DNA of 64,000 nt from sequence record OR352942.1. The stretch is one strand, 5' to 3'. This document shows positions 11,379 to 57,893 of the stretch, piece by piece. Position numbers and translations under genes: made by a program. The notes below the pieces were generated by a model that worked only from the letters and a program-made list of their open reading frames with translations, made no database searches and was not told the origin of the DNA. The DNA is from Escherichia phage AV112. Each line of letters begins with the position of its first letter. Positions within the stretch are counted from its first letter, which is position 1.

Positions 11379-11903
11379 TCATTTTAGCAAAATAAAATCA
11401 ACTTGTTCTGCCAATGAACGTCTGAACATTAATTGACAACTTCCGAGGATGAAATCAGGTGCTTCATAGACCGCGATGTAGTATCCTTTAGCTTTCAAGA
11501 GTTCAACATCCACCTGGTCATCAAACCATGCATAAACCGCGTCAACACTTTCAAATCCAAAATAGAGCCCTTTAGCCCAATCTTCACTCAATTCAAATGT
11601 TTGCTCAATTCTATAGTATCTTAAGATATTTTGTTCAAGGAGTTTGTCTTCATTTACTGTAGGACGATTAGGGACATTATAGTTGTCGCCGTGATGGTAG
11701 AAGTTACCTGAGAGTATTCCATGCTTATCAAGGAACTCCCATGTTTCTTCAGAGTTGTCGGTGCCCGTCCAACCGTATGGCGAACGAGGTTCTTTATTCC
11801 AAGAGGTTTCCCAAATTCTGACGGCTTTACCATCTTCGATAGCAATTCCTGGTAATGATTCACGTTGAGTACAAAAACTACGTTCTACGCGGTAAACTAA
11901 CAT
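11379..11903 (-). CDS. hypothetical protein (174 aa)
   Basis: ORF with its own PeSL cassette; no recognisable motif. Confidence 0.45.
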   Translation of the reverse strand: MLVYRVERSFCTQRESLPGIAIEDGKAVRIWETSWNKEPRSPYGWTGTDNSEETWEFLDKHGILSGNFYHHGDNYNVPNRPTVNEDKLLEQNILRYYRIEQTFELSEDWAKGLYFGFESVDAVYAWFDDQVDVELLKAKGYYIAVYEAPDFILGSCQLMFRRSLAEQVDFILLK

Positions 11904-11958
11904 ATTATTCTCCTCTGGTTGATATGGTTATAATATCAAAACCAGAGGAGAAGTAAAC
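11904..11958 (-). promoter_or_regulatory. PeSL-like early promoter/stem-loop cassette
   Basis: Minus strand GTTTAC-N17-TATTAT; perfect 12-bp inverted repeat TCTCCTCTGGTT (11909-11920) / AACCAGAGGAGA (11940-11951) enclosing the -10 and containing the SD. Confidence 0.55.
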
Positions 11959-11962
11959 AACT

Positions 11963-12382
11963 TTATGCAAAAGATGCTGGACAATATTTTTTGATTTGGA
12001 ACTCAGGAACTACCATGAACTGTCCAGCGAAAACGATGTTATAAAGCTTAACACCATCTTCTACCCATTGGTCCGAAATAAAACCAGCAACTTGATTCGT
12101 TGTCCATGGAGACCCGTCAGTTGCAGAAGCAATAGTAAATTCATGGTCTTTTACAACTAAAACAGACCTGCATAGTTTCCATTTGAACGCTTTTTCTTCT
12201 GATTCAATGAATTGGCTTTTAACATAACCAATGTTACCATCGGCGTCACGAACTTTAACTTCGTTACGTCCAAAAACCGGATCACTCACAGAAAGAACTT
12301 CAACCAACTTCCCGGCAACTTTAGAGCGAGAAGCAACAGATACATATACGTAATCACCTGTAGAGAGATTTACAATATTCAT
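11963..12382 (-). CDS. hypothetical protein, member A of a tandem paralogue triplet (139 aa)
   Basis: Shares VSVASRSKVAGKLVEV and FISDQWVEDGVKLYNIVF motifs with the next ORF. Confidence 0.5.
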   Translation of the reverse strand: MNIVNLSTGDYVYVSVASRSKVAGKLVEVLSVSDPVFGRNEVKVRDADGNIGYVKSQFIESEEKAFKWKLCRSVLVVKDHEFTIASATDGSPWTTNQVAGFISDQWVEDGVKLYNIVFAGQFMVVPEFQIKKYCPASFA

Positions 12383-12391
12383 AATAATTCC

Positions 12392-12847
12392 TTAAGCTTT
12401 AAGAGGAGACACATAGCGAGTGATTTCAGATTCTTTAACAACTCGGAAGTCACCTAAGAATACGATATTGTATAACTTTTCGCCATCTTCAACCCATTGG
12501 TCACTAATGAAGCCACACATAGTATCAGTTTTGCTTGGATAACCGTATTCGTCGATGTAATCAAATTCTTTATCGGTTATAAATTCAACGCCTTTGCAAA
12601 GAGCCCATTTGAACTGTACATTAGGTTCAGTAGAAGCAAAATGAGCGCTCACACGAGTTTCCAGGAATTTAGGACTTACGTAAGCGTACTGAGTATCCTG
12701 ACGTCCAAAACTAGGAATGATTCGAACTTTAACTTCTTTAATGCGTCCCATGCCATTTGTGCGAAGTCCGACAACTTCAACCAGACGACCTGCGGCTTTA
12801 GACCGGGATGCAGTTGATACACGCTTAATTTCACCAATAGTAATCAT
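12392..12847 (-). CDS. hypothetical protein, member B of the paralogue triplet (about 151 aa; start at MITIGE)
   Basis: Motifs VSTASRSKAAGRLVEV and FISDQWVEDGEKLYNIVF; ORF-track start 12910 lies inside the promoter cassette. Confidence 0.5.
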   Translation of the reverse strand: MITIGEIKRVSTASRSKAAGRLVEVVGLRTNGMGRIKEVKVRIIPSFGRQDTQYAYVSPKFLETRVSAHFASTEPNVQFKWALCKGVEFITDKEFDYIDEYGYPSKTDTMCGFISDQWVEDGEKLYNIVFLGDFRVVKESEITRYVSPLKA

Positions 12848-12906
12848 AATTTTTCTCTCTTTGTTTAAGTTGAATTCATTATACTCCATCCGTCCTTGGA
12901 TGTACA
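12848..12906 (-). promoter_or_regulatory. PeSL-like early promoter/stem-loop cassette
   Basis: Minus strand TTGTACA-N-TATAAT; inverted repeat CATCC/GGATG; core ATTATACTCCA shared with 13431-, 55878- and 56871-type copies. Confidence 0.5.
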
Positions 12907-12909
12907 ACA

Positions 12910-13404
12910 TTAATTTAGAATATTAACTACTGCACTACGTGGAACCACACTAAAATCACCGGCATGAACAACGTTCAGAAGTTCAACACCGTCTTCAATC
13001 CACTGGTCAGTTACCCATCCATTTACTGGACCATCGAATGGGCGTCGAATTGAAACATATTTACACAATAAATCAGTAGGCTCAATAGGCTTAATCAGAG
13101 TACCGTACATACAAACGATATCCATATCAAAGTGGAGACCATCTTTAACAGGTGCTTCTTCAATCAACAGTTCAAAGTCAGTGCTTGGAAGGGCAGTAGT
13201 AGAAATTGTACCGTATGAATTTTTAATTTCTAAGAATAACCAAGGGCCTTCAACTTGTTTAATGAAGTTAACAATAGTGAAACTATTACCTTGAGTGGCG
13301 CCTAAAATTTCACAAAACTTTTCATAAGCTCGCACTGAAGCACCGTACCAGTTGATTTGTTTTTCGTCTTTCAGGATGTAAGTAGCCGTAGTATTGATAT
13401 TCAT
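12910..13404 (-). CDS. hypothetical protein, member C of the paralogue triplet (about 164 aa; ATG at 13404)
   Basis: C-terminal motif WVTDQWIEDGVELLNVVHAGDFSVV matches the family; the ORF-track start is a TTG inside the cassette. Confidence 0.45.
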   Translation of the reverse strand: MNINTTATYILKDEKQINWYGASVRAYEKFCEILGATQGNSFTIVNFIKQVEGPWLFLEIKNSYGTISTTALPSTDFELLIEEAPVKDGLHFDMDIVCMYGTLIKPIEPTDLLCKYVSIRRPFDGPVNGWVTDQWIEDGVELLNVVHAGDFSVVPRSAVVNILN

Positions 13405-13464
13405 AATGTTTTCCCGTTTGGTTAAGATAGAAAGATTATACTCCAACCATCCTTGGTTGTAAAC
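13405..13464 (-). promoter_or_regulatory. PeSL-like early promoter/stem-loop cassette; member of a roughly 45-70-bp direct-repeat family
   Basis: Minus strand GTTTAC-N18-TATAAT; GTTAAGATAGAAAGATTATACTCCAACC[A/G]TCCTTGGTTGTAAACTG recurs at 55862-55907. Confidence 0.55.
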
Positions 13465-13468
13465 TGTT

Positions 13469-14161
13469 TTATCGCTGTTTTACACTTAACGGGTCAGGAT
13501 TCTCAGGGACATCTTCAAGGCCAAGCGCATAACGCTGAGCATATTTTAACATCAAAATATCTTTAGCACAATCATGAATACTATCATGGGCAACGAATCC
13601 TTTTAGCGTACCCATCGGTAATGGACACATACTTAATCCTCGTGTCAACGAGTAAGCTTCGATTGCCGTACGAATATCGCGTTGAGCCCAGAATTTAACC
13701 GGTTCTAATTTATCAGTATCAATATCTGGTTCAAGAACACCTTCATCACGATAGAGGTCACGAATCAAATCGACCAATATCGGGAAGTCAAAGCTCATAC
13801 CACGGCACCACATCTGTGATTTCCATTGGTCAACTTTATTAGCTCGGCAATAATCTAAAAAGATTTTAATGCCTTCAAGCGTAGTGACATCGTCTTCAGA
13901 CGGAGCCAAGTTTTTACGTGCTTCAGCCGATTGTTCTTTCCACCATTTCATAGTGGATTTAGCAAAAACTCGCTTCCCTTTCTGAGAAGCCAAATTAAAT
14001 TTAATTCGCTTACCTCGTTGAACAAGTTCTTCAAATGATTCAACAACTTCAGGGTCGGAATTATATGCAATAACCGCAAGGTCAATAACAGCCGCTTTTG
14101 ATGTATTGCCGAATGTTTCAAAATCTATAATAACATCAGTGCTCATAATTTTCTCTCTCAA
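13469..14161 (-). CDS. dexA: exonuclease A (DexA), DEDD-type 3'-5' exonuclease
   Basis: Motif VIIDFETFGN at the N-terminus (DEDD exonuclease motif I); size near T4 DexA; directly downstream of dda. Confidence 0.75.
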   Translation of the reverse strand: MREKIMSTDVIIDFETFGNTSKAAVIDLAVIAYNSDPEVVESFEELVQRGKRIKFNLASQKGKRVFAKSTMKWWKEQSAEARKNLAPSEDDVTTLEGIKIFLDYCRANKVDQWKSQMWCRGMSFDFPILVDLIRDLYRDEGVLEPDIDTDKLEPVKFWAQRDIRTAIEAYSLTRGLSMCPLPMGTLKGFVAHDSIHDCAKDILMLKYAQRYALGLEDVPENPDPLSVKQR

Positions 14162-55847: not shown

Positions 55848-55905
55848 AATATTTTCCTCTCGTTAAGATAGAAAGATTATACTCCAACCGTCCTTGGTTG
55901 TAAAC
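55848..55905 (-). promoter_or_regulatory. PeSL-like early promoter cassette; direct repeat of 13405-13464
   Basis: GTTAAGATAGAAAGATTATACTCCAACCGTCCTTGGTTGTAAACTG: 45 bp with 1 mismatch to the copy at 13421. Confidence 0.55.
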
Positions 55906-56842: not shown

Positions 56843-56897
56843 TTTATATTCCTCATGTTGAAAAATTTATTATACTCCAACCATCCTTGGTTGTACA
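56843..56897 (-). promoter_or_regulatory. PeSL-like early promoter cassette (same repeat family)
   Basis: TATTATACTCCAACCATCCTTGGTTGTACA. Confidence 0.5.
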
Positions 56898-57893
56898 TCA
56901 TTCCTTAAGAAGTTTTACTACTTGAATAAGATTAGCTCGTTCTGTTTTATTTTTACCGTTTAAGCCTGCTAATCGTGAGATTTCATCGTCAGTCTGTTGA
57001 ATAGTTACATTAAGTTCGTTAATCAAAGCTTCAAAGTATTTGATTTGCTCAGCATGTTTTGATTCAAATTTCTGAACCGGAATAACGTCTTGGTTTAGTT
57101 CATCAATAAGGTCTTTAAGAGCATCTTCTTGATTGATATCATATTCAACTTCTTTTATTTCTTCAACGAGCTCGTCTTTATATCTAACGTCTTTTAGTCC
57201 TGGTGCTGGTCCTGAAATCTCTTCTTTAAGAGTACAAACATATCCAATACGGTATCCAATGCCGTCTCGCTTGATATCAACTTCGTCAATAAATCCACAA
57301 TGTTTAAGACCAGAGCCGATTAAGTCAAAATATCCTTGACGACGTCCTTCAAACGTTACACGAACTACTAAGACAGTTTTACCTGCAACCTTTTGAAGCT
57401 CACATTTATAAAAGTTTGTTGAACCTGAATAACGTGGATGAGTTTTAAAGTTCATCTGACGATCTAGGCCCATTTGTAAGCGTGCTGATACGGCCATAAA
57501 ACGTGTTTGGTTCTCGTTAAGATGAGCAACAATCCATTTCAAAGGCATTTTACACTGTTCACGACCGAACAAATCAGTACGTCCTAGATTACGCAGGATG
57601 TTGTTAGAGTTAATCATCGACAGAACATTAAGTTTATTCAGCGCGCTGAAGATTCCATCAGCCATTGATTTTCCGTAACCTTTACACGCTTTAATAAGCG
57701 CTCGCGGTAGATTAGCATAGATTTCAGACGGCATATGAAAATCAAATTTACTAGTCAGTAATTGATGAACTTGGATAGCAATTTGCTCATAATTAAGTGC
57801 TCTGCGATCATTATGATCTTTAAACCACACTTTAATCTGTGAAGCACATAAACCGTTAATTTCATGTTTTACCGCATCAGATGTAATGCTCAT
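56898..57893 (-). CDS. hypothetical protein with C-terminal coiled coil (331 aa)
   Basis: C-terminal EQIKYFEALINELNVTIQQTDDEISRLAGL... Confidence 0.45.
   Translation of the reverse strand: MSITSDAVKHEINGLCASQIKVWFKDHNDRRALNYEQIAIQVHQLLTSKFDFHMPSEIYANLPRALIKACKGYGKSMADGIFSALNKLNVLSMINSNNILRNLGRTDLFGREQCKMPLKWIVAHLNENQTRFMAVSARLQMGLDRQMNFKTHPRYSGSTNFYKCELQKVAGKTVLVVRVTFEGRRQGYFDLIGSGLKHCGFIDEVDIKRDGIGYRIGYVCTLKEEISGPAPGLKDVRYKDELVEEIKEVEYDINQEDALKDLIDELNQDVIPVQKFESKHAEQIKYFEALINELNVTIQQTDDEISRLAGLNGKNKTERANLIQVVKLLKE

Follow-up and report, generated by a model that had tools for sequence, protein, structure and literature searches.

Gene content of the dexA-to-cef segment

The window, a 64,000-nucleotide stretch of Escherichia phage AV112 (OR352942.1), contains downstream of dexA a cluster of small genes on the minus strand, and this region shows 100% DNA identity with Escherichia phage AV113 (OR352943.1), a member of the RB69-like genus Mosigvirus. 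The three genes of main interest are referred to here, in the order of the cluster, as C, B and A; they are followed by motB.2 and then, still on the minus strand, by cef and goF, two further small ORFs and a gene 39-type topoisomerase subunit (Table 1). An earlier note on this DNA, made from the sequence alone, had described three consecutive ORFs of 139, 151 and 164 aa at this position, and its coordinates and lengths proved correct, the 151 aa being counted from the ATG chosen there. Its description of tandem relatives between dexA and gene 39 was likewise borne out, and the region is a non-essential one.

Table 1. Features of the motB cluster and related elements, with positions counted along the window.
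Feature	Position	Strand	Remarks
dexA	13469-14146	minus	First gene in the order of the cluster
Cassette upstream of C, GTTTACAACCAAGGATGGTTGGAGTATAAT	13435-13464	minus	11/12 sigma-70 consensus, 17-nt spacer; exact copy
Gene C, motB.1	12910-13404	minus	164 aa
Cassette upstream of B	12878-12907	minus	10/12 sigma-70 consensus; two mismatches to cassette consensus
Gene B, motB orthologue	12392-12847	minus	151 aa
B-A junction	12383-12391	minus	AAGGA ribosome-binding site of A overlapping the B stop; no promoter
Gene A, second, divergent motB copy, RB69ORF010c type	11963-12382	minus	139 aa
Promoter-like site between A and motB.2	11957-11930		TTTACT, 16 nt, TATTAT; TG before the second hexamer
Hairpin between A and motB.2	11908-11952	minus	12+6 bp stem; -24.5 kcal/mol; z -5.6
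motB.2	11379-11903	minus	174 aa; end of cluster; PHROG 1106, no Pfam motB match
Distant cassette	55876-55905	minus	
Distant cassette	56869-56898	minus	

As the gene orders of AV113, RB69, T4 and RB51 show, these genes lie in the dexA-to-cef segment of a Tevenvirinae genome. In RB69 the annotated order is dexA, motB.1, motB, a motB-like gene (ORF010c, "similar to T4 motB"), motB.2 and cef; T4 has dexA, motB.2, motB.1, motB and cef, with a single motB. The finding is therefore real and already known, in that it rediscovers a named, published family including the RB69-type duplication: Patterson-West et al. (2021, PMC7827196) list for RB69 two motB genes, one motB.1 and a 29-aa peptide. The earlier note had suggested a role in host takeover or anti-defence, but had not recognised the named genes motB.1, motB and the motB duplicate known from RB69.

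Family membership and domain architecture

All three proteins scored above the curated gathering threshold (25 bits) of the Pfam motB profile PF17613, with 131.1 bits for B, 81.4 bits for A and 34.6 bits for C. The match on B extended over profile positions 2-160 of 162 and that on C over residues 88-159. PHROG 1671 ("MotB-like") recovered B (E 3e-64) and A (E 2e-51), and C aligned over its full length, residues 1-164, with PHROG 2333 (E 3.9e-81). A and B aligned end to end at 44% identity (E 2e-33), whereas BLAST matches of C to A (E 3e-11) and to B (E 3e-10) were confined to the last 30-36 residues of C. The pairwise alignments proposed earlier as a check thus gave significant similarity for every pair.

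Two motifs had been described as common to the three genes. The second, G(F/W)(I/V)(S/T)DQW(V/I)EDGxxLxN(I/V)V, is shared by A, B and C far beyond chance, given the E values above, and contains an invariant core, G-(F/W)-x-x-DQW-x-E-x-G...L-x-N-x-V, of the C-terminal domain, a small beta-barrel that all three proteins carry. The first, (V)S(V/T)ASRSK(V/A)AG(K/R)LVEV, is carried by A and B only, with nothing comparable in C. The proposed triplet of paralogues is therefore better described as two genes related over their full length, A and B, and a third with only the C-terminal domain in common with them. When MotB is defined by two domains, a KOW/SH3-like N-terminal domain with SRSKxAG and a C-terminal domain with the DQWVEDG..LYN core, A and B belong to it and C does not; having only the C-terminal domain, C was assigned to the MotB.1 subfamily rather than to MotB proper. 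The structure models differ as well, with a helix at residues 26-37 of C and a strand in the corresponding stretch of A (26-32).

B begins with a basic KOW/SH3-like N-terminal domain, which a linker of 15 aa joins to the MotB C-terminal domain, and is 93% identical to RB69 MotB and 47% identical to T4 MotB over the full length. In the N-terminal domain, B and the T4-type and VR-type MotB proteins show 62-67% identity among themselves but only 44-48% with A, which identifies B as the orthologue of T4 MotB and A as the outlier. GenBank gives AV113 motB a length of 172 aa, with a start at an ATG at 12910 that overlaps the motB.1 stop (TAATG). This start was rejected: the extension of 21 codons (12848-12910) is the promoter cassette, and the ATG of the 151-aa form is the start in RB69, RB51 and T4 as well as in the Pfam profile. 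In several Mosigvirus genomes the extension is open, which probably reflects no more than conservation of the promoter. In public records motB should start at 12847, and the genes merit the names motB.1, motB, motB-like and motB.2 in place of "transcriptional regulator" labels that lack support.

The fourth gene, motB.2, carries the same GenBank label and was considered as a further family member, but was rejected for want of any similarity to the MotB family. It is labelled "transcriptional regulator" in AV113 and in many other records, resembles no regulator family, and falls in a PHROG of unknown function (1106). Its position differs by lineage, being after dexA in T4 and RB51 and after the second motB in RB69 and AV113, and the two versions are about 35% identical.

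In C, a beta-rich N-terminal domain of its own (residues ~1-82) is followed by a disordered linker (~87-107) and then by a C-terminal domain of the MotB type (~110-164). C shares 46% identity with T4 MotB.1 across 99% of its length, and the homologous gene of RB69 is annotated as motB.1. The AF2 model of C (pLDDT 78.9) leaves residues 87-107 disordered. In the RB69 reference (L002 1947-2443), motB.1 is broken by two single-base insertions into ORFs of 132 and 29 aa, in contrast to the intact 164-aa gene of AV113 and moskry. What Patterson-West et al. (2021) call a "Category 3 peptide" of 29 aa in RB69 is therefore a frameshift remnant of the 164-aa motB.1, or a sequencing error in it. Across T4-like phages, MotB.1-type C-terminal domains were found behind at least three different N-terminal architectures, which matches the categories in PMC7827196. 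MotB.1 has been predicted to possess an LSm-like, five-stranded N-terminal domain shared with GoF and Frd.2, with a flexible linker leading on to the C-terminal domain; it occurs as monomer and dimer, and its deletion from T4 gave no laboratory phenotype and no effect in the assays tried (PMC12152347). C would couple the MotB-type C-terminal domain to a different head.

A has the same two domains as B, joined by a linker of 5 aa as against 15-50 aa in every other MotB examined, and its N-terminal domain has no counterpart of the basic hairpin that reads RIIPSFGRQ in B. That domain carries a net charge of 0 in A, +8 in B and +5 in T4 MotB, and the pI of the whole protein is 5.8, 8.5 and 9.2, respectively; the C-terminal domains are acidic to neutral in all proteins examined. 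A was intact, at 139 aa, in 8 of 8 genomes. Its AF2 model, built with family alignments, reached a pLDDT of 86.7 and a pTM of 0.71, and its viral fold neighbours, all from other T4-like phages, were MotB, MotB.1 and proteins labelled "KOW domain".

The AF2 models of A and C, both confident and built with family alignments, agree with the published KOW assignment for the N-terminal domain of MotB (PMC7827196). For the C-terminal domain, an HHpred-based proposal in the same paper is an OB-fold cold-shock DNA-binding domain; our models hint that the shared domain may be SH3/Tudor-like rather than an OB fold. PDB sequence searches, run once with B alone and once with a profile of 37 MotB sequences, returned no match, so the family has no solved structure there, and searches of PADLOC and NCBIfam gave no matches.

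Promoter cassettes, selection and exchange between phages

The two best sigma-70 matches between 11000 and 14300 lie upstream of C (13463-13435, 11/12) and of B (12906-12878, 10/12), in agreement with the promoter cassettes reported there in the earlier note. Both belong to a 30-bp cassette with the consensus GTTTACAACCAAGGA(T/C)GGTTGGAGTATAAT, of which the window holds four copies at 0-2 mismatches (Table 1); at up to 3 mismatches there were 9 matches in the window against 1.1 expected by chance. The copy upstream of C is invariant in AV113, RB69 and moskry. The cassette spacer contains an inverted repeat of 5-6 bp with one paired change among the four copies, through which the repeat is kept in the cassette of B (CATCC...GGATG vs CAACC...GGTTG). 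Early expression of the cluster is suggested, as a prediction, by these strong matches to the promoter consensus.

The 9-bp gap between A and B is as previously described and carries the Shine-Dalgarno of A, TAAGGAATTATTATG. The same spacing was found in RB69, RB51, NHEP11, Mizar, LF82-8, moskry and FriedrichZschokke. Since A has no promoter of its own and its Shine-Dalgarno overlaps the stop of B, B and A most likely share one transcript, and the cassette upstream of B would drive this bicistronic B-A message.

The other two cassette copies bracket another gene about 43 kb away, and the leader that follows the copy at 55876 resembles the motB.1 leader. From its sequence, this pair looks like the PeSL cassettes, promoter/stem-loop elements that flank movable ORFs and by which modules are shuffled in T4-type phages (Arbiol et al., 2010, PMC2839356). 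What they have in common is a strong sigma-70-like early promoter that is repeated, holds an inverted repeat in its spacer and flanks non-essential ORFs, C itself being bracketed by two copies. The inverted repeat here is only 5-6 bp long, unlike the G-run/C-run stem of RB49 and phi1.

A separate hairpin lies between A and motB.2 (Table 1). Its 3' arm contains the Shine-Dalgarno of motB.2, GAGGAG, and its 5' arm falls in the spacer of the adjacent promoter-like site. In mRNA that reads through from upstream, the ribosome-binding site of motB.2 would be hidden, while a transcript from the local promoter would be without the 5' arm. Six Mosigvirus loci keep the hairpin sequence; the only changes are two wobble-compatible ones, and covariation is absent.

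The tandem genes had been called diversifying. Nei-Gojobori estimates on orthologues from 6-8 phages (those named above for the B-A spacing) gave pairwise dN/dS values of 0.01-0.25 for A, with one comparison without non-synonymous change excluded, 0.14-0.37 for B and 0.02-0.29 for C, at dS among orthologues up to about 1 (for A up to 0.68). With all pairwise values between 0.01 and 0.37, each gene is under purifying selection and none is diversifying at the gene level. The comparison of A with B that had been proposed for the same purpose was run and is uninformative, since dS is saturated at 1.85 (dN 0.53); the orthologue comparisons were used instead. The saturated dS, together with a longest shared DNA word of 14 nt, dates the A-B duplication as old. 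Recent gene conversion between A and B was looked for and not found by word length or by third-position identity, which is 0.3-0.6 even in the conserved core, so the shared motifs are kept by selection at the protein level.

A proposed comparison of copy number among phages showed that the number of motB genes does differ, with one in T4 and two in RB69 and AV113. By tblastn, orthologues of A at 80% identity or more were present in 207 of 773 phage records, separated by a clean gap from matches below 60%, which are the single motB of other phages; A is absent from T4 and from about 566 of the 773. B-type MotB (at least 60% identity) was found in 201 records. The A/B pair occurs in approximately 207 of the 773 records, some Tequatrovirus among them: RB51 and FriedrichZschokke, both of this genus, carry the B-A pair in an otherwise T4-like gene order. 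Their A is 91% identical to that of AV113, compared with only about 35% for motB.2, which indicates that the B-A pair moves as a cassette.

Natural hybrid motB genes were also observed. One hybrid, P0029 (L010 3001-3492, L011 2199-2690, L012 37-528), joins a T4-type N-terminal domain (98%) to an A-type C-terminal domain (89%); 5 contigs carry it, originating from at least 3 samples, and its setting there is dexA, motB.2, motB.1, hybrid, an 89-aa ORF and cef. Another, P0028, joins a B-type N-terminal domain (100%) to an A-type C-terminal domain (96%), and P0031 is likewise among the natural hybrids. Assembly chimerism was considered for P0028 and P0029 and is unlikely, with no long shared k-mer and with P0029 recovered on several contigs from different samples. 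These hybrids imply that paralogues naturally exchange the two MotB domains. In addition, among more distant T4-like phages, P0195 and P0198 (Enterobacter phage ZX14, "modifier of transcription", 149 aa) pair a KOW-type MotB N-terminal domain with a MotB.1-type C-terminal domain (DPTDLL...GWVSDQWIEDGVELLNVVHAGDF), a further sign from sequence that domains may recombine freely within the family.

Proposed roles and comparison with known systems

The cluster consists, with high probability, of motB.1 (C) and two motB genes, the orthologue B and the additional, divergent copy A, which are MotB-like early host-takeover genes. MotB is also the subject of Son et al. (2021, NAR 49:9229). According to the published work on T4, MotB appears about 1 min after infection and is an abundant protein; its co-purification with H-NS and StpA depends on the presence of DNA, it co-occupies DNA with them, and it is toxic in E. 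coli (PMC6070864, PMC7827196). It binds unmodified and glucosyl-hydroxymethylated DNA, of host and phage, tightly and non-specifically (PMC6070864), changes the H-NS footprint, up-regulates 75 host genes, of which about one third belong to the H-NS regulon, and roughly doubles the burst size (PMC6070864, PMC7827196). No DNA-independent contact between MotB and H-NS was found (PMC7827196). The host-takeover role suggested in the earlier note agrees with this picture of an early, abundant protein that alters H-NS binding and derepresses H-NS-silenced genes. By analogy, B would act as T4 MotB does, with its strongly basic N-terminal domain contacting DNA.

For A, the loss of the basic charge and of nearly all of the linker points to a sub-functionalised variant, which, judged by charge and linker length, would most likely act via the shared C-terminal domain and not as an independent DNA coat. 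The basic N-terminal domain would be the likelier DNA-contacting part, and the conserved C-terminal domain an interaction or assembly module through which A would co-assemble with MotB-family proteins or bind the same partner. Patterson-West et al. (2021, PMC7827196) note that MotB and MotB.1 share the C-terminal domain, differ in the N-terminal domain, and that one is probably a duplicate of the other. A wider proposal, which we put forward tentatively and consider rather unlikely as a whole, is that the C-terminal domain is a Tudor/SH3-like interaction/assembly module rather than an OB-fold DNA-binding domain, placed on interchangeable heads (basic KOW-like, LSm-like and others), and that A is a modulator co-assembling with MotB/MotB.1 or competing for their partner. 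If true, A would tune the remodelling of the host nucleoid. The pair of a basic MotB and an uncharged, near-linkerless MotB is in any case a natural experiment on which domain binds DNA and on the role of the C-terminal domain.

One of the other readings weighed follows the anti-defence suggestion of the earlier note: the proteins would block a dedicated anti-phage system and diversify in an arms race. We regard it as very improbable. Purifying selection on all three genes speaks against it, even though copy number and N-terminal domain architecture vary between phages and the genes lie in a non-essential, mosaic region predicted to be expressed early. Direct support for anti-defence was not found: there was no PADLOC match, our literature search returned no paper tying MotB to a defence system, and the only link is that H-NS is regarded as a silencer of foreign DNA; T4 MotB, moreover, left expression of the CRISPR locus unchanged (both from PMC7827196).

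The labels "modifier of transcription" and "transcriptional regulator" given by GenBank and PHROG would make these genes sequence-specific transcription regulators of phage middle genes, and the motB name itself goes back to early genetic work cited in PMC6070864. This is likewise very improbable in view of the T4 knock-down of motB, which left the transcriptome almost unchanged, with early and middle RNA the same and a few late genes mildly affected, and in view of the lack of sequence specificity in DNA binding (PMC6070864, PMC7827196). The same label on motB.2 in AV113, where homology gives it no support, further weakens the case. It is less credible still that A is a redundant or decaying duplicate without a function of its own. 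Its absence from T4 and most other records, its shorter length and its lost basic charge would fit such a gene, but an ORF intact in every genome examined, with low dN/dS at appreciable dS and 91% identity between Mosigvirus and Tequatrovirus carriers of the cassette, would not, and its type of C-terminal domain is reused in the natural hybrids.

The closest relatives are MotB.1, MotB and ORF010c of RB69, which are the same genes in the same order at 92%, 93% and 88% identity, respectively. Compared with T4 MotB (162 aa), A and B show the same two-domain layout with the SRSKAAG and DQWVEDGVKLYN motifs, the same dexA-cef locus and a predicted early promoter for the motB unit. They differ in that there are two copies here instead of one, in the linker of B (15 vs 23 aa) and in A, with its 5-aa linker, no basic hairpin and a pI of 5.8 vs 9.2. 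The biochemistry cited above is that of T4 MotB, to which B is only 47% identical. C is a full-length homologue of T4 MotB.1 (143 aa; 46%), with the same C-terminal domain and the same place directly upstream of motB, but has about 21 extra residues (~85-107, DMDIVCMYGTLIKP) that AF2 left disordered. The position of motB.2 differs as well, between dexA and motB.1 in T4 and after the second motB here. Finally, T7 gp5.5 and T4 Arn, early proteins that relieve H-NS silencing, are possible work-alikes of MotB; according to PMC7827196 they are unrelated to it in sequence and bind H-NS directly, whereas MotB associates with H-NS only through DNA.
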